In this document: piece by piece, positions 1 through 63,623 of the stretch | Layout: each line of letters starts with the position of its first letter | How positions within the stretch are numbered: the first letter of the stretch is position 1 | NCBI GenBank assembly: GCA_015488215.1 | Contig: WFOE01000240.1 | Coordinates: 9 to 64,008, forward strand | Source of the DNA: Planctomycetales bacterium | GTDB lineage: Bacteria; Planctomycetota; Planctomycetia; Pirellulales; S012-138 | Reading direction: 5' to 3' | DNA: 64,000 nucleotides | The notes under the pieces: model-generated | The model's input: only the letters and a program-made list of their open reading frames with translations | What the model was told of the DNA's origin: nothing | Database searches by the model: none | Made by a program: the position numbers and the translations under genes

Positions 1-430
1 AAGGGCGCGAGCCCCGCACGGCAGTGCGGGGAGAAAAGTCGGAGATCGGCTTCCGCCGTGCGCCTTGCGCCAGGAGCTTCCGCTCCAGCGGAAATCGAAG
101 CGTTCCTGCTCGTGCTCGTACTCGTAATCGGCAGTTCGTTACCTGCGCTCAGCACTCGGCGAGCCGGGAGCGTCAGCTCCCGGAGAACGGCACGGCCGTC
201 GGCGACTGGGTGCTTCCGCACCAATGCGAGAAAAAAACGCCGATTCATGCACTCAGCGAGCCGGGGACTTCAGTCCCCAGAGGAAAACGACGAGCAAACG
301 TTTGTCTCCGGCTCTCCCCGGACTGAAGTCCGGGGCTCGCTAAGCTGGAAAAAACCGAGCTGGAAAAAACGCCACTTTTTGCGGCGAGTGATCCGGGAGC
401 GTCAGCTCCCGGCCAGGGGTACCCTTGTCC
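1..430 (+). repeat. Mosaic GC-rich hairpin-module repeat locus A, upstream of tkt
   Basis: Hairpin modules are CCCCGCAC-GGCA-GTGCGGGG (12-31), GGAGC-TTCC-GCTCC (73-86), CCGGGAGC-GTCA-GCTCCCGG (164-183 and 393-412), GGTGC-TTCC-GCACC (209-222), CCGGGGAC-TTCA-GTCCCC (261-278) and CCCCGGAC-TGAA-GTCCGGGG (316-335). The module CTCGTGCTCGTACTCGTAATCGGCAGTTCGTTA is also present. The same modules recur at five other loci in the window. Confidence 0.85.
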
Positions 431-530
431 GGCGGCGAATCTCGGCGAAAATGGCGTTCTCCGGTCCCCGGGCGACACCTGTCCCTGACTGCCCCTTGGG
501 TGTTATTCCTCCGAAACGAAACTGCTTGCC

Positions 531-4508: not shown

Positions 4509-4874
4509 TGCGGCTTGCGGCTTGCGCCGTGCGCCTTGCGCCAAGGAGCTTCCGCTCCGAAGGGCGTGGGGGCTTGGAGGCTTGGGGGGATGAGGCAGGT
4601 GCTTACGCACCGGGCGAGAATAAAAGCTGATCCTTGGAAACAGCGAGCCGGGGACGTCAGTCCCCGGAGAAGAATGGCAAACAAGCGCTGGTTCTCGGGC
4701 TGCTCCGCGAGTTCGCACTCGCGGCTCGCTGGATACGCGACAACGTGCTAACACTCGCAACCGGCGAGCCACTGGCTTCACTCGGCGTGGAGACTTGGAG
4801 ACGTGCGGGCTTGGGGGGAGAGCTACCGCTCCGGGCGAGAATAGGTGCTAACCGTAGAATCGGCGAGCCGCTGG
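4509..4874 (+). repeat. Mosaic hairpin-module repeat locus B, between convergent hslU and the rrf2-like gene
   Basis: Contains GGCTTGCGGCTTGCGCCGTGCGCCTTGCGCCAAGGAGCTTCCGCTCC (4510-4558), a G-tract module (4562-4594), GGTGC-TTAC-GCACC (4598-4611) and CCGGGGAC-GTCA-GTCCCCGG (4648-4667). It also has CGCGAGT-TCGC-ACTCGCG (about 4706-4723), GAGAGCTACCGCTCC (about 4818-4832) and three GGCGAGCC anchors. Confidence 0.85.
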
Positions 4875-5306
4875 CTAGATGTAATACATCGGTTCCAATT
4901 CGGTGGGCAGTTGTTTCATTAGTTCGTCCAGCGTGGTACGCCGCAAGAGTTGTTCTTCCTGGCGTCCCAGTTGTTCCCACAGCCCTTGAAACACCGAAGC
5001 CAGAGGCGAGCTTTCCAACGTGGAGCGTTCGCGATGCTGGTCGCTTCCCTGGACCGCCTGCACAATGTCCCAGACCGAAATCTCCTTCGGCGGTCGGGCA
5101 AGCAGGTACCCGCCCGAGGAACCCCGCACGCTATTGACCAGCCCGGCGTTGCGCAGCTCCCGCAGAATCTGCACCAGAAACCCCCGAGGGATGTGATGCC
5201 GGGCAGTGATGGTTCTCACCTGCACTTTGCGTCCGCTGTGGTAGTGCAAGGCCAGCTCCAACGCGGCCAGGCAAGCGTACTCGACCCGGGCGGAGAATCT
5301 AGTCAC
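4875..5306 (-). CDS. Rrf2-family transcriptional regulator
   Basis: The winged-helix core is RVEYACLAALELALHYHSGRKVQVRTITARHHIPRGFLVQILRELRNAGLVNSVRGSSGGYLLARP. The start is placed at GTG 5306. The ORF-track N-terminal extension to 5468 looks non-coding. Confidence 0.8.
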   Translation of the reverse strand: MTRFSARVEYACLAALELALHYHSGRKVQVRTITARHHIPRGFLVQILRELRNAGLVNSVRGSSGGYLLARPPKEISVWDIVQAVQGSDQHRERSTLESSPLASVFQGLWEQLGRQEEQLLRRTTLDELMKQLPTELEPMYYI

Positions 5307-5659
5307 GGTCGCAGAAAATCCTTTGCTGGCAGCAAGCGGCGATGGTTTCCCTGGACACCGGTGGGCAGCGGTCCCGCCTCCTAGGAGTACGGTTGTGGGA
5401 AGCTTGGCACCAATCGTAACCCTGGGGCAAACCGGACTGCAAGCCGCCCGGCGGGAAAAGCCCCGCAACAGGGGCGCTCATTCGGGTCCTGAGGCCGGGC
5501 AAAGGTGGCCCCGGTCCGGGCAAAGCGGTATAACACCAAAACGCCCCGCCGGAAGCGCTCCGGCGGCGCCAAGGCCGGTGGCAGCAAAGCCTGCAGCCGT
5601 TGGTGGCCGGAACCAAACCGCACATGTCGTTTCCCCTTGCCAGCGAAAGGGTGCAGCCA

Positions 5660-6715
5660 ATGATCCGCGTTGGGCTCGCCGGGATTGGGTTCATGGGCTG
5701 GATTCACTACCTGGCCTACCAGCAAGTGCCCCAGGTGCAGTTGGTGGCCATCGCTTCGCGCGACGAGAAAAAACGCCGCGGCGACTGGCGGGGGATCAAG
5801 GGGAACTTCGGGCCGGAGGGCCGCCAGGTGGACCTGACGGGCGTGCGGACCTACGAAACCCTGGAGCAGATGCTGGCCGACCCGGAAGTAGACCTGGTAG
5901 ACCTGTGCCTGCCGCCGGCGCTGCACGCCCCTTCGGCGATTGAGGCCCTCCGCGCCGGAAAGCACGTGTTTTGCGAAAAACCAATCGCCGTCCGGCTGGA
6001 AGACGGCCGCCAGATGGTGCAGGTGGCCCAGGAAACCGGCAAGCGACTGTTCGTGGGCCACGTGTTGCCCTTTTTCCCCGAGTTCCACTTCCTGTGGCAA
6101 GCCGCCCAGGACGGACGCTACGGCCGCCCGCTGGGCGGGATGTTCCAACGCACCATCAGCGACCCGAAGTGGCTCCCCGATTTCTACCACCCGGACAAAG
6201 TCGGCGGCCCGGTGGTCGATCTGCTGATTCACGACGCCCACTTCCTTCGCCTGCTGTGGGGAATGCCCCGGGCGGTGTTCAGTACCGGGCGGATGCACGA
6301 CCCGCAGGTGGTGGAATACCTGTGCTCCCAGTTCCTTTACGAAGAAGGCACGGGTCCGGTGGCGGTCCACGGCGGGGTGATTCGCCAGTCGGGCCGGGAC
6401 TTCACGCACGGGTTCGAAGTCCACTTCGAGCAGGCCACCGTGTTGATGCAGTTTGCCGTAATCGATTCCCAGCCGGTGGTGGCCATGCCGCTGACGGTGC
6501 TTGCCGCCGACGGGAGCGTGGAACGGCCCTCGTTGGGCGAAGGCGACCCGGTGCAGGGGTTCGTGGCCGAAGTGACCGAGGTGGCCCAGGCCCTGGAGCA
6601 GAATCGCCCCTCGCCGCTGCTGGAAGGCCAACTGGCTCTGGACGCTCTGGCACTGTGCCACGCCCAGAGCGAATCGGTCGCCACCGGGAGGGAAGTGGCA
6701 ATTGCTTCGCAGTAA
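5660..6715 (+). CDS. Gfo/Idh/MocA-family NAD(P)-dependent oxidoreductase
   Basis: Has a Rossmann start MIRVGLAGIGFMGWIH and EKP motif (VFCEKPIA). The start is placed at ATG 5660 rather than 5600. Confidence 0.85.
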   Translation: MIRVGLAGIGFMGWIHYLAYQQVPQVQLVAIASRDEKKRRGDWRGIKGNFGPEGRQVDLTGVRTYETLEQMLADPEVDLVDLCLPPALHAPSAIEALRAGKHVFCEKPIAVRLEDGRQMVQVAQETGKRLFVGHVLPFFPEFHFLWQAAQDGRYGRPLGGMFQRTISDPKWLPDFYHPDKVGGPVVDLLIHDAHFLRLLWGMPRAVFSTGRMHDPQVVEYLCSQFLYEEGTGPVAVHGGVIRQSGRDFTHGFEVHFEQATVLMQFAVIDSQPVVAMPLTVLAADGSVERPSLGEGDPVQGFVAEVTEVAQALEQNRPSPLLEGQLALDALALCHAQSESVATGREVAIASQ

Positions 6716-9595: not shown

Positions 9596-10107
9596 AACCC
9601 GTCGCAAGCGCGACGCCGGTTGTCTCTGTGTGGGAAGCGAACGGGCCTGAACAGAAGCAATGGCCAGTTGCCCGGCGAGCCGCTCGCTTCGGGGGGGTGA
9701 GGACTTGGGGACTTAGAGGTGTGGGGGGATGGAGGGAGAGCTTCCGCTCCGCGCGGGAACGGGCTTGCGGCTTGCACCGTGCGCCTTGCGCGGGAGCTAC
9801 CGCTCCGACGCCAAAACACTCACTCGTGCTCGTGCTCGAACTCGTTCTCGGCAGCTTGTAATCTGTATCGCGAATCGGCAACGGCGAACCGCCAGCTTTA
9901 GCTGGCGGAGAAGAACCAACGAGCAAACGTTTTTCTCCGGCTTCTCCGGTTCTCCCCGGACTGAAGTCCGGGGCTCGCCAAACTAAAGTGGGCTTGCGCC
10001 GTGCTTCCGCACCGGTCAGGTCCCAAACCTTCACCCGTTCAAGCCCCTGCAAGCGCCCGGCCTCCCCCGCAAGGGCTTGCAGCCGCGGTGGGGAGAGAGA
10101 GGCCAGG
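9596..10107 (+). repeat. Mosaic hairpin-module repeat locus C, between convergent gltA and rpsA
   Basis: Contains CGTCGC-AAGC-GCGACG directly after the gltA stop, a G-tract module (about 9693-9735) and GAGAGCTTCCGCTCC...GGCTTGCGGCTTGCACCGTGCGCCTTGCGCGGGAGCTACCGCTCC (9735-9806). It also has the CTCGTGCTCGTGCTCGAACTCGTTCTCGGCAGCTTGTAATC module, GCCAGC-TTTA-GCTGGC (9891-9906), CCCCGGAC-TGAA-GTCCGGGG (about 9953-9972) and GTGCTTCCGCAC (about 10001-10012). Confidence 0.85.
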
Positions 10108-15872: not shown

Positions 15873-16224
15873 ATCTGAATGCAATCTGAACCCGAGCTGA
15901 AGCGGCGACTCCTCTAGCAGGGCTTGAGGGGATGGGGCGTGAGGGCGTGGAGGCTTGGGGGGGTGCGGGGAGAGCTACCGCTCCAGGGCAAGAGTCGGCT
16001 TGCGGCTTGCGCCGTGCGCGGGGAGCTTCCACTCCGAAGCAAGAACAAACGCCGATTTTCGCAATCGGCGAGCCGGGAGCGTCAGCTCCCGGAGGACAGC
16101 GCGGCCGTCGGCCACTGGGTGCTTCCGCACCAGTGGACAAACAAACGCTCGCACTCGTGCTCGTAATGCGTAATCGGCAGCTCGTTATCAGTGGCCAATA
16201 ATCGGCAATCGGCCGCCAGCCGGC
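15873..16224 (+). repeat. Mosaic hairpin-module repeat locus D, between convergent genes
   Basis: Contains TGCAATCTGAA-TCTGAA-TGCAATCTGAA at the stop codon, a G-tract module (15921-15970) and GAGAGCTACCGCTCC...GGCTTGCGGCTTGCGCCGTGCGCGGGGAGCTTCCACTCC. It also has the about-65-nt unit GGCGAGCCGGGAGCGTCAGCTCCCGGAGGACAGCGCGGCCGTCGGCCACTGGGTGCTTCCGCACC (16066-16131) and the CTCGCACTCGTGCTCGTAATGCGTAATCGGCAGCTCGTTATC module. Confidence 0.85.
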
Positions 16225-25958: not shown

Positions 25959-25974
25959 GAAACCCCTCCTCTCG

Positions 25975-26075
25975 CCGGTTGCAAGTGTTCTTGCATTGGA
26001 GCGGAAGCTCCCGCTCAAGACGCACGACGCAAGACCTTGTTCGTTCGGAGCTCGCCGAAACGCCGAGTCGAGGCT
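25975..26075 (-). repeat. Short inverted-orientation copy of the hairpin-module repeat family (locus F)
   Basis: Contains GCAAG-TGTT-CTTGC (25981-25994) and GGAGC-GGAA-GCTCC (25998-26011), which is the reverse complement of GGAGCTTCCGCTCC. The following CAAGACGCACGACGCAAG is the reverse complement of the CTTGCG.CGTGCG.CTTG module. Confidence 0.65.
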
Positions 26076-48721: not shown

Positions 48722-49110
48722 TGGCGGCTTGCGGCGTGCGACGTGCGCCGTGCGGCTTGCGCCGTGCGGCTTGCGACTGGTGCTTCCGCACCGAGCCGGG
48801 AACAAACGCCAACTTGTGCCAACTTGCCTGACTGGCGAGCCGGGGGCGTTAGCTCCTGGAGGACGGCACGGCCGTCGGCGACTGGGTGCTTCCGCACCGA
48901 AGCAAGAATAAGCGCCTATTCGCGCAACTGGCGAGCCGCGACCTCAGTCGGCGGAGGACAGCACGGTCGCAGCCATTGGGAGCGCCCGCTCCAAGGCAAG
49001 AGAACAAGCGCCTATTCCGCAACTGACAACCGGCGAGCCAGGAGCGTCAGCTCCCGGAGGGACTCGTCGCACGAACCGCCAACTTTTTCGGCGGATGAAA
49101 ACCAAACACC
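48722..49110 (+). repeat. Mosaic hairpin-module repeat locus E, between the ApgM-like gene and the aspartate kinase gene
   Basis: Contains GGCTTGCGGCGTGCGACGTGCGCCGTGCGGCTTGCGCCGTGCGGCTTGCG, GGTGCTTCCGCACC (48779-48792) and the about-65-nt unit GGCGAGCCGGGGGCGTTAGCTCCTGGAGGACGGCACGGCCGTCGGCGACTGGGTGCTTCCGCACC (48835-48898). It also has the direct repeat AAGCGCCTATTC(GC)GCAACTG (two copies) and GGCGAGCCAGGAGCGTCAGCTCCCGGAGG (49032-49060). Confidence 0.85.
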
Positions 49111-58938: not shown

Positions 58939-59391
58939 TTAGGCGGCCTTCTTTTGGGCCTTTTTGGGAGCAGCCTTCTTCTTGGGAGCCGGAGCAGCTT
59001 CCTTGGCCGCGCCATGGCAGCTACTGGCATGGCAGCTACTGGCGTGGCAACTGCTGTGGCAGCCGTGGCAGCGGCGGAACAGCCGCAGACCGTGGCACCG
59101 GCGAGCATGGCAACCGTGGCACCGACGACGGGCATGGCAGCTACTGGCATGGCAACTGCTGTGGCAGCCGTGGCAGCGGCGGAACAGCCGCAGGCCATGG
59201 CACCGGCGAGCATGGCAACCGTGGCAAGCAGCATCACCATGGCAAGCGGCAGCGCCGTGACAGGCATCGCCATGACAAGCATGGCAGCCGTGACAGTGTC
59301 CCGCTTGCACCGTTTCGGTGGTCCCTTGCACCATGGCCAGGCCGACCACGGCAACAAACGCGGCAATCCCCATCAAAAGCACTCGGTTCAT
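58939..59391 (-). CDS. Small secreted Cys-His repeat protein (20 CH dipeptides, 6 CXXCH) with a Lys/Ala/Pro tail
   Basis: ATG 59391 is preceded by GAGGAGGA 7 nt upstream. The signal peptide is MNRVLLMGIAAFVAVVGLAMVQGTTETVQA. The core is GHCHGCHACHGDACHGAAACHGDAACHGCHARRCHGLRLFRRCHGCHSSCHASSCHARRRCHGCHARRCHGLRLFRRCHGCHSSCHASSCHASSCHG and the tail is AAKEAAPAPKKKAAPKKAQKKAA. Codons are GC3-rich (TGC CAC GGC), consistent with the host. Confidence 0.7.
   Translation of the reverse strand: MNRVLLMGIAAFVAVVGLAMVQGTTETVQAGHCHGCHACHGDACHGAAACHGDAACHGCHARRCHGLRLFRRCHGCHSSCHASSCHARRRCHGCHARRCHGLRLFRRCHGCHSSCHASSCHASSCHGAAKEAAPAPKKKAAPKKAQKKAA
59022..59226 (-). repeat. 105-bp (35-aa) tandem duplication inside the Cys-His repeat gene
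   Basis: GGCAACTGCTGTGGCAGCCGTGGCAGCGGCGGAACAGCCGCAG(A/G)CC(G/A)TGGCACCGGCGAGCATGGCAACCGTGGCA occurs from 59046 and again from 59151. GCATGGCAGCTACTGGCAT flanks recur at about 59030 and 59132. Confidence 0.9.
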
Positions 59392-60583: not shown

Positions 60584-60917
60584 GCGGGGTGGGTTTGCTT
60601 GCGGCCCTGGCCACATCTCAGGACGCCGTGGCCCTCCACAGGAAAATGTGCTGGTCGGGCTTGGCACGGGCTGCTGATTCGGTACATGCCGTCGATGGAC
60701 ACAAGCTGTTGAGACGGATTCCGCCGTCAGACGGCCATGCTGCTGAAATGGATTTTCAACAAGGCTCAGTTGCCCCAATGTTGACCAAATGAAGCGGTTG
60801 GGTTGAGTATAAAAAATCCGCTTTTTTCCCTGGTTTTGAGCAATTTTTCTCTTGCAATCTTGCCCGAATCGAGAAAAAAAGAAAATGCCAGGGGTTCTAA
60901 CAGAGGAGGTCGCAGCG

Positions 60918-63623
60918 ATGAATCGCACCAGCCAGGGGTTCTTCTCTTCGTTACTGCGCTTCTTATGCAAAAAGAATAGCCCGGCCGCTGGTTCGTTGCA
61001 GATCGAGGCATTGGAAGGACGCCTGATGCTTGACGTCGGGCTGTTCCCCTCTCTGGATCAAAACACGCTGGAGCAGACAATCCAGCAACTGCCCGACCAG
61101 CCGGTACCGGACGATCCCGCGCCAGGATTGGGCTTGGGACAGTTTCGGGCGCTTTCGGCAAGCAGTCCTGGCACCTGGTCTGGGACCAGTTCGGGACAGG
61201 GCAGCTCGAGCCAGGATTCGTTGCACGACCACGATGACTTCGACGACGATGACGACCACACGGACGTCTATAACGTCAACGTGCCGGTGACCAACAATCC
61301 GGTCGGCCCGTTGAACACGTACCTGGTGTCCACCGATGACCCGGGCAGGCTCACGTTGAGCAACGGCGTGGTGGTCGATTACGACGATTCGGACATTCTG
61401 GCCCTGGTGGTGGACAGCCGAGGCCAGTTGGTCAACGCAGGCATTTACTTCGACGGCAGCGACGTCGGGCTGACCACCGGCAAGGAAGACATCAAAGGAT
61501 TTACCCTGGACGACCAGGGGAATATTTACATCACGCTCAAGGGCAAGGGACTCGTCAACACGCCCCAAGGCAATCTGGTCGTCGGCGCCAACGACATTCT
61601 CAAGTTCACGCCCACTTCGCTGGGAACCACTACGGTCGGCACCTGGGACTGGTACTTCGACGGTAGCGACGTCGGGCTGTTCGGCAGCGACGAGCGGATC
61701 AGCGGCCTGAGCTTCCTTTCCAACGGCGACTTGCTCCTGACGCTACACGAACGCGGCAACGTACCGGGACTGGGGAGCGTCCAGGCCGGCGACGTGCTCC
61801 GCTTCCGCTTTACTACCCAAGGGTTCGGCACCACCGCCGGAACCTGGAGCCAGTGGTTGAGCGGTGCCACGCTGGGGCTGACCGGGCATGATCCCGAAAT
61901 GAGTGCCCTTTGGGTTTCCGCCGACGGGAACCGCGTCGGCTTTTCGGCCGAAGACGACTACCGCCACGGCAACTGGCGCGCTCAGGACGAAGACCTGCTG
62001 CTGTACAACCGCTCCACCGGAGCGGTTTCGGTGTTGCTGAACACCACGCGGCTGGGACTGGGCCACCAGGACGTCGACGGCCTCCATATCCTCAGCGGCG
62101 ACGCTTTGGCTGCCCTGGGCAACACGGGCAGCGGGGGTTCGACCGGAACAGGAAGCGGCAGTGGCAGCGGCAGCGGATCAGGAAGCGGCAGCGGCTCCGG
62201 CGGGGGTACCGGCAGTGGAAGCGGCTCGGGCAGCGGCAATTCCAACACGCCCACGCCCAACGGACCGCTGACGACTTACCTGCTTTCCACCGACGATCCT
62301 GGTGCCCTCCGGCTGCCGGACGGTTCCGTGTTCACTTACGACGATTCGGACATCATCGCCCTGGTGGTGGACAGCACCGGCCAGTTAATTTCGGCCGGGA
62401 TGTATTTCGACGGCAGCGACGTCGGGCTGACTACCAACAACGAAGACATCAAAGCCTTTGCCTTGGACGCCCAGGGGAACATCTACATCACGCTCAAAGG
62501 CAAGGGACTGGTCAACACGCCCCAGGGCAACCTGGTCGTCGGCGTCAACGACATTCTGAAGTTCACGCCCACTTCGCTGGGAACCACTACGGCCGGCACT
62601 TGGGACTGGTTCTTCGACGGCAGCGACGTGGGCCTGTTCGGCAGCGACGAGCGGATCGAGGGCCTGAGCTTCCTGCCCAACGGCGACCTGCTCCTCTCGA
62701 TCCACGAGCGGGGCAACGTACCCGGGGTGGGCAGCGTCCAGGCCGGCGACCTGTTGCAGTTCCACTTCACCACCCAGGGCTTCGGCACCACGGCCGGAAC
62801 TTGGTCGCGGTGGCTCGGCGCCTCGACGCTGGGGTTTGGTCCCTCGGAAGCTGAGCTAAACGCGCTGTGGATTTCCGGCGACGCTAACCGGGTGGCCTTC
62901 TCGGCCGACGACGACTATCGCCACGGCGGCTGGCGGGCCCAGGACGAAGACCTGCTGATGTACAACCGCTCCACCGGAGCCGTTTCCGTGTTGTTGAACA
63001 CCACGGCCATGGGCATGCGGAGCCAGGATGTGGATGGACTGCACATCCTCAGCGGCGACGCCTTGGCCGGCATCGGCAACAGCAGTGGTAGCGGAGGGAC
63101 CAGCAAAGCCTTGTGGTTATTCGCCGCCCGAAGCCTCGATCCTGCCGGCAAGCAGACGGATCGGGAAGTGCCGGATCCCCGCGATCCCGACCTCCGTTCT
63201 TCGGCCGACGACCTGCTGCCGCAGATCGACGACGGCCTGCTGGATGACCACCCCACCCAGCAGACCAGTCCGTTAACCGGCATGTTGGACGACCAGCACC
63301 CAACCAGCAGCGACCTGCTGCCGCAGATCGACGACAGTCTGCTGGATGACCACCCCACCCAGCAGACAAACAACCTGGCCGACGATAGGGACGGCCAGCA
63401 CACTTGGGCACCAGACGATCAGCCGAGCGGAGAGCACACCTCTCTCTTCGACGACGACCAGCAGACGCATTCTTCTCATCCGTCTGGTGACGATTCCCTG
63501 TGGCGAACCGACGACGATTCGCTTCGCCGTTTGGGGCAAGCCACGGACGATGTGTTGGCCGGCATCGGTGAGCTGGATTATTACGAAATCCTGGCCCGGC
63601 GCATCTCCGCCCAGTTGCGTTGA
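60918..63623 (+). CDS. Large secreted repeat protein (two 319-aa propeller-like units, a (GS)n linker, an acidic D/Q-rich tail)
   Basis: GAGGAGG lies 8 nt upstream of ATG 60918. The N-terminus is MNRTSQGFFSSLLRFLCKKNSPAAGSLQIEALEGRLMLDV. The FDGSDVGL motif recurs four times. Near-identical halves start at GPLNTYLVSTDDPG and GPLTTYLLSTDDPG. The C-terminal DLLPQIDD(G/S)LLDDHPTQQT occurs twice. Confidence 0.85.
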   Translation: MNRTSQGFFSSLLRFLCKKNSPAAGSLQIEALEGRLMLDVGLFPSLDQNTLEQTIQQLPDQPVPDDPAPGLGLGQFRALSASSPGTWSGTSSGQGSSSQDSLHDHDDFDDDDDHTDVYNVNVPVTNNPVGPLNTYLVSTDDPGRLTLSNGVVVDYDDSDILALVVDSRGQLVNAGIYFDGSDVGLTTGKEDIKGFTLDDQGNIYITLKGKGLVNTPQGNLVVGANDILKFTPTSLGTTTVGTWDWYFDGSDVGLFGSDERISGLSFLSNGDLLLTLHERGNVPGLGSVQAGDVLRFRFTTQGFGTTAGTWSQWLSGATLGLTGHDPEMSALWVSADGNRVGFSAEDDYRHGNWRAQDEDLLLYNRSTGAVSVLLNTTRLGLGHQDVDGLHILSGDALAALGNTGSGGSTGTGSGSGSGSGSGSGSGSGGGTGSGSGSGSGNSNTPTPNGPLTTYLLSTDDPGALRLPDGSVFTYDDSDIIALVVDSTGQLISAGMYFDGSDVGLTTNNEDIKAFALDAQGNIYITLKGKGLVNTPQGNLVVGVNDILKFTPTSLGTTTAGTWDWFFDGSDVGLFGSDERIEGLSFLPNGDLLLSIHERGNVPGVGSVQAGDLLQFHFTTQGFGTTAGTWSRWLGASTLGFGPSEAELNALWISGDANRVAFSADDDYRHGGWRAQDEDLLMYNRSTGAVSVLLNTTAMGMRSQDVDGLHILSGDALAGIGNSSGSGGTSKALWLFAARSLDPAGKQTDREVPDPRDPDLRSSADDLLPQIDDGLLDDHPTQQTSPLTGMLDDQHPTSSDLLPQIDDSLLDDHPTQQTNNLADDRDGQHTWAPDDQPSGEHTSLFDDDQQTHSSHPSGDDSLWRTDDDSLRRLGQATDDVLAGIGELDYYEILARRISAQLR
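61305..63077 (+). repeat. 957-bp internal tandem duplication (about 90% nt identity by eye) including a (GGC/AGC)n Gly-Ser microsatellite at about 62121-62238
   Basis: Unit 1 starts at 61305 and unit 2 at 62262, a period of 957 nt or 319 codons. Long identical runs include ATCACGCTCAA.GGCAAGGGACT.GTCAACACGCCCCA.GGCAA.CTGGTCGTCGGCG.CAACGACATTCT.AAGTTCACGCCCACTTCGCTGGGAACCACTACGG. Confidence 0.9.

Follow-up and report, generated by a model that had tools for sequence, protein, structure and literature searches.

Intergenic hairpin-repeat arrays, probably of a REP/BIME-like kind, in an uncultured lineage of Planctomycetota

The window analysed here is a 64,000-nucleotide stretch of a contig from a Planctomycetales bacterium (GenBank WFOE01000240.1). 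Between the hslU stop codon and a convergent Rrf2-family gene it carries a mosaic of short hairpins and micro-repeats (Array 2, the subject of this study), one of six intergenic hairpin-repeat arrays that together account for ~3% of the window and to which the modules are confined; beyond the arrays, the window holds only chance 8-mers of modules. Three of the five long arrays sit between convergent genes. The arrays, built from hairpins A, B and C, a linker and three kinds of micro-repeat run, are laid out as follows:

1-415, plus strand: Array 1, 5′ of tkt and running past the contig end; A+, heptamer run, B, hexamer run, A+, hairpin C, B, linker, A+/A- doublet, degenerate A+.
4509-4874, plus strand: Array 2, hslU stop codon to convergent Rrf2-family gene; heptamer run, B, G-run, B, linker, A+/A- doublet, degenerate A, G-run, B, linker, truncated A.
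9596-10013, plus strand: Array 3, gltA to convergent S1-domain (rpsA-like) gene; separate small hairpin (9600-9617), truncated A (9674), G-run, B, heptamer run, B, hexamer run, A+/A- doublet, heptamer/B remnant.
15873-16224, plus strand: Array 4, cbiA-like (GATase_3) gene to a convergent gene of no known identity; G-run, B, heptamer run, B, linker, A+, hairpin C, B, hexamer run.
25959-26075, minus strand: Array 5, short and inverted, 3′ of a LysR-family gene; A- foot remnant, linker-, B- (GGAGCGGAAGCTCC), heptamer run-, A- foot remnant.
48722-49110, plus strand: Array 6, apgM-like gene to aspartate kinase gene; long heptamer run, B, then three head-to-tail ~100-nt units (A, hairpin C, B, linker).

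At the site orthologous to Array 5, the related metagenome-assembled genome (MAG) JALSGI01 has one A- at the same position (locus L073); a further locus, L001, has a G-run further 5′ of Array 1.

The modules listed by the initial annotation were all found where it had placed them, including the short inverted copy (25959-26075), and direct-repeat families D2, D6, D8-D11, D13 and D17 are common to 1-430, 4509-4874, 9596-10107, 15873-16224 and 48722-49110. Across the window, GGWGCNNNNGCWCC has 15 matches against 0.93 expected and GAGCC-N6-KTNA-N6-GG has 9 against 0.40; GGCGAGCC alone is weak evidence, at 16 matches against 7.9 expected. The arrays had been described as starting right after stop codons, which is so for those behind hslU and the apgM-like gene only: the first recognisable modules lie 40 nt past the stop codon of the cbiA-like gene and 78 nt past that of gltA. 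The six ORFs that span arrays are without a Pfam match, in agreement with the earlier view that no credible protein is encoded there.

Module A reads GGCGAGCC, followed by a variable 6-nt stem arm, a KTNA loop, the matching 6-nt arm and GGAG. Its anatomy comprises a conserved 5′ foot, (G)GCGAGCC, an 8-bp stem (five pairs of which can vary), a conserved KTNA loop closed by C:G, and the tail GGAG (or GGTT). The sequence CCCCGGAC-TGAA-GTCCGGGG, previously counted as a module of its own, is module A inverted. Copies in the window are:

7-33, plus strand: A, stem CCGCAC, loop GGCA.
158-185, plus strand: A, GGCGAGCC-GGGAGC-GTCA-GCTCCC-GGAG.
255-342, plus strand: heterodimeric A+/A- doublet, stems GGGGAC and CCGGAC, outer GCGAG/CTCGC feet paired, fold z-score -5.0.
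4642-4730, plus strand: heterodimeric A+/A- doublet, stems GGGGAC and GCGAGT, fold z-score -4.2.
9883-9979, plus strand: heterodimeric A+/A- doublet, GCGAACC foot, stems GCCAGC and CCGGAC, fold z-score -5.3.
16067-16094, plus strand: A, stem GGGAGC, loop GTCA.
48834-48861, plus strand: A, GGGGGC/GCTCCT with two G:T pairs, loop GTTA.
48930-48956, plus strand: A variant, GCGACC-TCA-GTCGGC, 3-nt loop.
49032-49059, plus strand: A, AGGAGC/GCTCCC, loop GTCA.

Selection by the flanks only yielded 191 copies of A with 74 distinct sequences; all six stem pairs form in 53 of these 74, against 9.7 in an arm-swap control. The distinct copies fall into 29 stem types with conserved loops, and one related MAG alone has 21 stem types.

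The remaining modules surround A in a recurrent arrangement:

4545-4558, plus strand: module B, hairpin GGAGC-TTCC-GCTCC with a TNCC loop; other copies at 73-86, 209-222, 4598-4611, 9793-9806, 16022-16035, 16118-16131, 48779-48792, 48885-48898 and 48979-48992, and an inverted copy at 25998-26011.
4509-4542, plus strand: heptamer micro-repeat (TGCGCCT/GCKTGCG, ×4.9); other runs at 47-70, 9762-9790, 15996-16020 and 48724-48775 (×7.4).
4563-4595, plus strand: G-rich octamer run (GGCKTGGR); others at 4784-4820, 9692-9735 and 15912-15962.
109-142, plus strand: hexamer run CTCGTR; others at 9823-9860 and 16150-16190.
16039-16070, minus strand: linker, CGCCGATTGCGAAAATCGGCG then TTTGTTCTTGC, a terminator-like hairpin plus T-rich tract; other copies at 226-254, 4614-4641, 48902-48929 and 48996-49031.
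16095-16112, plus strand: hairpin C (GACRGCRCGGYCGTC), between A and B; others at 186-205, 48862-48879 and 48957-48974.

The modules of an array are co-oriented and follow a common grammar: a G-run or heptamer run leads to B, B to a linker or hexamer run, and this to A+, after which A- may follow. In the lineage of the window this gives units of ~100 nt that end in an A hairpin (a single unit being a G-run or heptamer run, B, linker and A), placed head-to-tail in polar arrays. The shuffled module order claimed by the initial annotation is contradicted by array alignment and transition counts, by which the arrays are polar and largely colinear. The accessory modules (B, heptamer and octamer micro-repeats, linker) occur only in the window lineage and in JALSGI01, with none in 418 kb of other A-bearing loci. 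In JALSGI01, a G-rich octamer run continues straight from the GGAG tail of an A module.

Module A itself extends well beyond the window, being present in at least 84 loci of species-representative genomes, almost all of them, among the loci listed, from Planctomycetota by record title. In most other genomes it takes the form of an inverted, REPIN-like doublet. Of 32 doublets, 28 have no target-site duplication or flanking direct repeat, a lack that HuH-Y1 elements would be expected to show, and 29 are heterodimers with differing stems. In several MAGs the doublet is a ~80-nt perfect inverted repeat, and in CAWBOY01 the palindrome is ~22 nt longer on each side; GTAG/CTAC was seen only at the ends of the extended palindromes of this one MAG. 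A copies are 91% intergenic in DNA that is 77% coding (predicted coding sequences contain 21 of 237), and they under-use divergent gaps, which hold 14% of copies against 30% of gap bases. The orientation of arrays and of A relative to flanking genes is only weakly biased, at about 2:1, and arrays also occupy divergent promoter gaps, as seen in L089 and, in a count of 32 arrays, for 4. Genes with A on both sides are ordinary housekeeping genes. In the sampled loci of a related MAG, which were picked for having an A, the module recurs nearly once per kb; if that density holds, a genome would carry hundreds to thousands of copies. A phage or plasmid origin was considered and rejected: IMG/VR viral contigs contained no A, and PLSDB plasmids gave two marginal partial matches to the A doublet only.

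Comparison of close relatives revealed that the arrays change rapidly. In L089, whose HslU is 99% identical, the arrays 3′ of hslU and 5′ of tkt keep their ends but have had ~150 nt of modules exchanged in their interior; in L087 and L088 (HslU 92-94% identical), the modules 3′ of hslU are inverted. At a given locus, arrays of genomes with 99% HslU identity differ by module-level replacement. These MAGs have contigs that break off within arrays, and their synteny is interrupted at the same places; the elements therefore affect genome plasticity as well as the quality of assemblies in a group that is abundant but uncultured.

Our preferred reading (probability roughly 0.6) is that the arrays are REP/BIME-like, non-coding, non-autonomous repeats of an uncultured Planctomycetota lineage, with Y1 mobilisation and array reshaping as its inferred components. 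On this reading the arrays are fast-changing, selfish or semi-domesticated DNA of the REP/BIME-like kind that fills the gaps between genes. Module A spreads between genes as single copies or as inverted doublets, and no target-site duplications accompany it. By analogy, A may be mobilised by a HuH-Y1 single-strand DNA transposase of the RayT or "class 3" type, an enzyme that would recognise foot, loop and hairpin shape whatever the sequence of the stem. Strand-specific insertion, repeated beside existing hairpins, would then reshape the arrays, together with recombination or template switching between short shared modules and slippage of the 6-8-nt micro-repeats; insertion, recombination and slippage combined would account for the differing arrays that near-identical strains carry at one locus. 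Recombination alone could also be the source of the strain differences, with no transposition involved. Effects on transcripts, exerted by hairpins at 3′ ends or by the linker hairpin and T-tract on the reverse strand, would on the preferred reading be a side effect and not the raison d'être of the arrays.

The class to which we liken the putative enzyme has a published hairpin signature. Class 3 tnpA-Y1 genes occur in Planctomycetes, Acidobacteria and Legionella as REPtron-like units, flanked by hairpins that read CnGAGCC-N6-GTNA-N6-GG and that reach hundreds of copies per genome, ~600 in Solibacter; Planctomycetes are already a main host phylum, with 11 of 24 proteins (Quentin et al, 2018, BMC Genomics 19:475, PMC6006769, Table S1). 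The window and 677 kb of related A-bearing loci were searched for Y1 transposases by regular expressions and by tblastn (queries: E. coli RayT, an IS608 TnpA sequence and three class 3 proteins), and none of any class was detected, against an expected class 3 gene number of only about 1-3 copies per genome; for RAYT specifically, the window and related loci contained neither a Y..NP motif nor a tblastn match to E. coli RayT. One weak tblastn match to a transposase (L008) lay inside an unrelated 407-aa gene and was discarded. A scan of metagenomes yielded 14 matching contigs with 13 class 3 tnpA ORFs, and inverted hairpins of the class 3 type flank most of these ORFs; in protein searches with class 3 queries all nameable homologues were from Acidobacteria. 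Records of L. adelaidensis contain REP-like copies, with no transposase gene nearby.

A more specific proposal, which we hold possible but on balance doubtful, is that a class 3-type HuH-Y1 enzyme reading only foot, loop and shape inserts ~100-nt hairpin-terminated non-coding cassettes head to tail beside hairpins already in place, building a strand-specific, integron-like array. With structure as the sole cue, stem sequences would be free to diverge, and the 6-8-nt micro-repeats, which echo the GGAG and CTCG foot sequences, would be left behind by repeated rounds of cutting and rejoining at the foot. If true, this would be the first worked example of the action of a class 3 Y1 protein and a new mode of BIME formation, in a phylum without such elements described.

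It is unlikely that the arrays are instead selected, functional transcript-end elements (intrinsic or bidirectional terminators, 3′-UTR stabilisers or insulators) in which repetition reflects convergent or duplicated signals. Such a role would suit the intergenic placement of A, its under-use of divergent gaps and the siting of long arrays between convergent genes, and it draws further on folding: homodimeric doublets form 31-bp hairpins (fold z-score -12.4), and on the reverse strand 29 of 42 distinct linkers have a covarying hairpin with a T-rich tract behind it, two of them detected by a terminator scan. The reported lack of T-tracts is accurate for the plus strand and wrong for the minus strand, where the linker hairpin runs into TTTGTTCTTGC, while the orientation of arrays to genes is mixed. 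Whole arrays, by contrast, fold no better than shuffled sequence (z-scores -0.6 and -1.75), some A copies lie inside predicted coding sequences, and near-identical copies in different genomes point to copying, not to independent origin. Given the weak orientation bias, the arrays in divergent promoter gaps and the replacement or inversion of modules between close relatives, a dedicated stabiliser or terminator role, among those envisaged initially, is not supported as the primary explanation.

We also considered whether A, or else the ~100-nt unit, represents a family of structured non-coding RNAs with many gene copies, either a small RNA like Acido-Lenti-1 or a protein-binding hairpin, and judge this quite improbable. 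The strong stem covariation of A around a conserved loop and flanks would be typical of such a family, the loops of B read GGAA (GNRA type) on the reverse strand, and an Rfam search at E ≤ 1 returned, besides generic long-hairpin microRNA matches, repeated weak matches of the A reverse strand to Acido-Lenti-1 (RF01687), a small RNA motif of Acidobacteria and Lentisphaerae for which the portion of the source text consulted states no tie to repeats (Weinberg et al, 2010, PMC2864571). In Array 2 the A+ half of the 4642-4730 doublet is the source of this match, on the minus strand. The A reverse strand, CC-N6-UGAC-N6-GG-CU, corresponds to model positions 1-22 (CCUAGCgC-UgAC-GcGCUAGG-CU), but only the 20-nt hairpin aligns, the remaining ~24 of the 46 model positions being unmatched, and the scores (22.3-24.2 bits) all stay below the gathering score of 37. 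None of the outcomes that would have refuted the initial interpretation was found: the family extends through the genome and across many genomes, it is not translated, and no Rfam family reaches its gathering threshold. Against an RNA family stand also the wobble pairs, which are without strand asymmetry (19 versus 13, G:T against A:C mismatches), the copies in both orientations to genes and inside coding sequences, the projected density of hundreds to thousands per genome, the presence/absence differences between close strains, and the finding of no promoter-like signal beside the units.

A classical MITE origin of the inverted doublets from an insertion sequence of the DDE type, with their 28-nt hairpin-bearing arms as terminal inverted repeats, is highly unlikely: the perfect ~80-nt doublets and the longer CAWBOY01 palindrome would fit, but most doublets have no target-site duplication and are heterodimeric (differing stems that a DDE enzyme recognising terminal inverted repeats would not tolerate), single copies and head-to-tail arrays are common, and the architecture fits Y1-associated hairpins.

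On the preferred REP/BIME-like reading, the arrays offer a natural data set on how a hairpin-recognising system tolerates free stem variation, and they bear on the action of uncharacterised class 3 HuH-Y1 proteins, which attract interest as tools for single-strand DNA. Through these elements the orphan Rfam motif Acido-Lenti-1 may also come to be linked to mobile DNA, and a model of the modules would improve annotation, by removal of spurious array ORFs, and supply markers for strain typing. A literature search returned no REP or MITE family described for Gemmataceae or Planctomycetes apart from two of the papers cited here.

Among known systems, the BOX elements of Streptococcus pneumoniae and the Correia/dRS3 mosaics of Neisseria consist of a few boxes in fixed order and variable copy number. 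They resemble the present arrays as modular intergenic mosaics, but their sequences and hosts are unrelated and they are without the Y1-type hairpin-foot architecture. The Neisseria mosaics are also mentioned by Di Nocera, 2013 (PMC3733652). A closer parallel is offered by the REP/BIME/REPIN elements of Proteobacteria with their RAYT (Bachellier, 1994; Bertels & Rainey, 2011; Di Nocera, 2013, PMC3733652), which share with A the form of short GC-rich extragenic palindromes with a conserved unpaired foot, inverted doublets that include heterodimers, mosaic clusters with linker motifs, occasional intragenic copies, strain variation and the lack of target-site duplications. The foot of A is GCGAGCC (GCGAG), however, and not the GTAG (GT[AG]G) or CGTC of REP; its stems are far more diverse within one genome than REP stems; and the window arrays are mostly head-to-tail and polar, with 6-8-nt micro-repeat runs, unlike the alternating orientation of BIMEs. 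The likeness to REP/BIME drawn in the initial annotation remains the best-supported reading, the arrays being intergenic, palindromic, multi-copy, mosaic and hypervariable between close relatives, without target-site duplication.

For the core hairpin itself, the initial statement that it could not be assigned to a described family proved too strong. It has the architecture of class 3 TnpA-Y1 flanking hairpins alongside its sub-threshold Acido-Lenti-1 matches, yet a covariance model of 26 bona fide class 3 hairpins, a short model that makes for a weak negative, scored the best A of the window at 13.5 bits (E about 0.5), within noise. Mosaic arrays with B, micro-repeats and linker are not described for class 3, and the class 3 stem is nearly fixed (GCGACC/GGGAGC) with a conserved tandem G.A mismatch, whereas A pairs perfectly through at least 29 stem sequences. 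Both have the same layout of foot, GCC, ~8-bp stem, 4-nt loop and GG tail, with (C/A)nGAGCC as the foot, CC and 6 further bp in the stem, a C:G-closed GTNA loop and GG(A/T) as the tail, and both form inverted pairs and reach high copy number. The foot of A, nCGAGCC, departs from the published CnGAGCC and agrees with that of Planctopirus limnophila (ACGAGCC), whose class 3 hairpin ACGAGCCGGAAGCGTCAGCGACGGGC is identical to the commonest A at 20 of 26 positions in a hand alignment with the Table S1 sequence. As no Y1 gene was detected in the window or the related loci, the link of A to a Y1 enzyme is one of analogy; the core hairpin most resembles the class 3 HuH-Y1 flanking hairpins, which appear to be its closest known relatives.

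The arrays are a real, abundant and fast-evolving family of REP/BIME-like intergenic repeats. Repeats are present in the window where the initial annotation had placed them, and a regex map showed the modules to be essentially restricted to six intergenic arrays, outside which only chance GGCGAGCC octamers were encountered (taken by itself, this octamer is weak evidence: 16 matches versus 7.9 expected). Within the window GGWGCNNNNGCWCC occurs 15 times (0.93 expected) and GAGCC-N6-KTNA-N6-GG 9 times (0.40 expected), and a repeat finder joined the five long arrays through shared families (the heptamer run, the GGCGAGCC hairpin, a 78-nt composite, and the G-run plus hairpin). ORFs crossing the arrays have no Pfam match and were left uncalled by a codon-usage gene caller. 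The arrays following hslU, gltA and the cbiA-like and apgM-like genes had all been said to start at stop codons; two of them do so and the other two start 40 and 78 nt downstream. The gltA gene has its own 6-bp hairpin (cgtcgc-aagc-gcgacg, window 9600–9617) directly after its stop codon, which lies outside the repeat vocabulary, the array proper starting 57 nt later.

The window (64% G+C) is near-identical to part of ENA ERZ23495365 scaffold_212, a 76-kb metagenome scaffold. Its nearest HslU relatives come from three uncultured genomes (99%, 94% and 92% identity) and the next are ~73% identical, the named ones among them being Pirellulales, which places the source organism among the uncultured Planctomycetota. 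The genes flanking the arrays are ordinary housekeeping ones: tkt, hslV, hslU, an Rrf2-family regulator, gltA, an S1-domain (rpsA-like) gene, a CobB/CobQ-type amidotransferase, a LysR regulator, an apgM-type phosphoglycerate mutase and aspartate kinase. The window also holds a repetitive 923-aa ORF (60852–63623, plus strand; internal duplication of ~957 nt at 80% identity, Gly/Ser-rich linker at 62127–62238, N-terminus resembling a secreted planctomycete protein) and a 105-nt tandem repeat (59026–59226, 1.9 copies, 96% identical) where the codon model predicts no gene.

Module A, the core hairpin, consists of (G)GCGAGCC, six stem bases, a four-base loop, six complementary bases and GGAG; "CCCCGGAC-TGAA-GTCCGGGG", originally listed as a separate module, is simply A inverted. 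A degenerate 27-mer scan of one genome per species matched A at no fewer than 84 loci in species-representative genomes. Among the matches listed, almost all hosts are Planctomycetota by record title (including Gemmataceae, "Planctomycetaceae" and Alienimonas), and a few records are labeled Alcaligenaceae or delta-proteobacterium. Selection on the flanks alone (GCGAGCC, 16 bases, GGAG) across the window and the scanned loci yielded 191 copies with 74 distinct sequences, 53 of which form all six stem pairs, versus 9.7 in a control with arms exchanged among copies. This set contains 29 different 5′ arms and only the loops GTCA, TTCA, GTAA, GTTA, GTGA and TTTA; A is thus conserved in hairpin shape, foot and loop but not in stem sequence.

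The window lineage shares a wider vocabulary with the MAG JALSGI01 (one ortholog is 82% identical between the two).

Modules shared with JALSGI01
Hairpin B: GGWGC-TNCC-GCWCC
Heptamer run: GCKTGCG
G-rich octamer run: GGCKTGGR
Hexamer run: CTCGTR
Hairpin C: small hairpin
A-rich linker: GCAAGAACAAACGCC...

Other A-bearing loci, 418 kb in all, lack these accessory modules, barring two hexamer-run and six B-pattern matches, the latter being A hairpins read in reverse. Free shuffling of module order, as the initial annotation had it, does not describe the arrays, which are largely colinear: an alignment of seven reads heptamer run, B, G-run, B, heptamer run, B, linker/hexamer run, A+, spacer, A− (A+ and A− being the two orientations of A), and nearly all modules of any one array share an orientation. 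Array 6, after the apgM-like gene, repeats a ~100-nt unit of A, C, B and linker three times head to tail.

Commonest module transitions over 46 arrays
A+ to A+: 31
Heptamer run to B: 26
B to linker: 24
A+ to A−: 24
Linker to A+: 14

Heptamer or hexamer microsatellites occur in other Planctomycetota MAGs, adjoining A hairpins at three loci (L050, L061 and L016). Locus L066 bears a 77-nt perfect palindrome of GCCAAGA heptamers (5694–5770), ~3.6 kb from its A doublet, that matches microRNA models in permissive Rfam mode.

A codon-model gene caller run on 655 kb placed 216 of 237 A copies between genes, in DNA that is 77% coding. Divergent gaps hold 14% of A copies versus 30% of gap bases, and in co-directional gaps there is an orientation bias of ~2:1 (63 versus 31 for A, 25 versus 14 for B). 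The 21 A hairpins inside predicted coding sequences include L046 3619–3641, L052 2726–2748 and L065 2965–2987; the 27-nt module equals nine codons, and some intragenic copies may be in-frame insertions like those reported for REPs.

The claim that the arrays lack T-tracts holds for the plus strand only, T-rich tracts being present on the opposite strand. Read in reverse, the linker consists of the covarying hairpin CGCCGRTT-GCAAG-AAYCGGCG and, after it, TTTGTTCTTGC.

Intrinsic-terminator-like features of the window (linker hairpin plus T-rich tail)
16039–16070, minus strand
226–254, minus strand
4614–4641, minus strand
48902–48929, minus strand

At least six T follow within 14 nt of the hairpin in 29 of 42 distinct linkers, and from this sequence pattern a degree of terminator activity toward antisense or convergent transcripts is plausible. 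A dedicated terminator role would draw on the same feature but is unlikely, given that array orientations relative to genes are mixed (14 sense, 8 antisense, 6 convergent and 4 divergent among 32 polar arrays); because of this mixture, terminator activity of the linker would be a side effect. The arrays returned no Rfam match at gathering thresholds. Mismatches in the A stem are about equally often G:T and A:C (19 versus 13), so there is no sign of structural selection on one strand only; that the arrays are a small-RNA family strikes us as improbable, even with the pairing of A so well kept.

In most of the other MAGs A takes the form of an inverted doublet of A+, a ~25-nt spacer and A−. A homodimeric doublet folds as a 31-bp hairpin (z-score −12.4), and homodimers make up 3 of 32 strict doublets. 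In all three window doublets the stems differ between halves, giving a branched fold closed by GCGAG/CTCGC feet (z-scores −4.2 to −5.3). Inverted doublets of this kind could be read as DDE-type MITEs, an explanation we regard as very improbable; a flanking direct repeat is absent at 28 of the 32. In the MAG JBFWQT01, a longer repeat has A at its 5′ terminus. In CAWBOY01 (L013 3490–3610, L008 and L058), the A doublet sits inside a ~120–130-nt palindrome, with ~22 nt extra on each side and outer ends GTAG...CTAC, the classical REP foot, which suggests a composite of two hairpin systems.

Comparison with close relatives demonstrates rapid turnover. The genome represented by L089 (HslU 99% identical) likewise carries one array downstream of hslU and another upstream of tkt (the latter between divergent genes), with the ends kept and ~150 nt of internal modules swapped for others drawn from the shared vocabulary. 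Downstream of hslU, the two relatives with HslU at 94% and 92% identity have the modules inverted, and their neighboring genes differ. Relative to L087, L088 and L089 (92–99% HslU identity), gene order differs at window 1–530 and 4509–5600, on at least one side of the tkt-upstream array and also downstream of the hslU array. Synteny breaks coincide with arrays and the L001 and L088 contigs end inside them; the arrays therefore mark rearrangement and assembly breakpoints. Recombining or mobile DNA behaves in this way and a conserved regulatory site does not, and we give mobile or recombining REP/BIME-like DNA a probability of about 0.6 as the explanation of the arrays.

If that explanation is right, a class 3-type Y1 enzyme is a possible mobilizing activity, at somewhat under even odds. 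Class 3 is a small HuH-Y1 group found mainly in Planctomycetes, Acidobacteria and Proteobacteria, with atypical hairpins of CnGA foot on the flanks of its genes (~600 hairpin copies in Solibacter; Quentin et al, 2018, PMC6006769). In JALSGI01 the GGAG tail of an A module runs straight into the G-run as GGAG-GCKT repeats, which prompted the speculative part of our reading, in which a class 3-type enzyme would build the arrays. The published class 3 motifs (NHVH, then YV[VI]xEQ), back-translated and scanned against metagenome contigs, matched 14 contigs, 13 of which encode clear class 3 proteins or fragments (complete genes, ~165–170 aa). Most genes with enough flank are bracketed by inverted CnGAGCC-GCGACC-GTNA-GGGAGC-GG hairpins, and protein searches with two of the recovered proteins retrieved 1,437 and 3,952 relatives, often annotated by JGI as "REP element-mobilizing transposase RayT" and, wherever named, Acidobacteria. 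The published gene-plus-hairpin unit is thus real and abundant. On one metagenome contig (L099 3807–7622), a class 3 tnpA-Y1 and five hairpins lie in-frame within a 1,271-aa ORF.

Three tests fail to tie A to this unit. Neither the window nor 677 kb of planctomycete DNA bearing A yielded a Y1 protein of any class, a weak negative because only 1–3 transposase genes are expected per genome; a covariance model built on 26 bona fide class 3 hairpins scored window A copies at just 13.5 bits (E ~0.5); and the stem of class 3 hairpins is fixed and contains a tandem G.A mismatch, in contrast to the perfect, highly variable stems of A.

In the literature searched, neither such repeats in Planctomycetes nor mosaic polar arrays with lineage-specific modules were found described. 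REPs are sorted by a GTAG or CGTC foot (Di Nocera et al, 2013, PMC3733652), and the foot of A is neither. In permissive Rfam searches A repeatedly matches Acido-Lenti-1 (RF01687) on the reverse strand, at 22–24 bits versus a threshold of 37, with the hairpin alone aligning. Dispersed Legionella class 3 REP-like hairpins lie in or adjoining intergenic gaps on Legionella adelaidensis NCTC12735 "plasmids" 8, 9 and 11 (L090–L092), which bear the core chromosomal genes for ATP synthase, ribonucleotide reductase and hemB. The class 3 hairpins of Table S1 (CAGAGCCGCGACCGTTAGGGAGCG from Solibacter, CCGAGCCGCGACCGTAAGGGAGCGGA from Legionella and ACGAGCCGGAAGCGTCAGCGACGGGC from Planctopirus limnophila; PMC6006769) have the same architecture as A, and that of P. 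limnophila is identical to the commonest A at 20 of 26 positions in a hand alignment. In architecture, the core hairpin belongs with the hairpins of class 3 HuH-Y1 genes.
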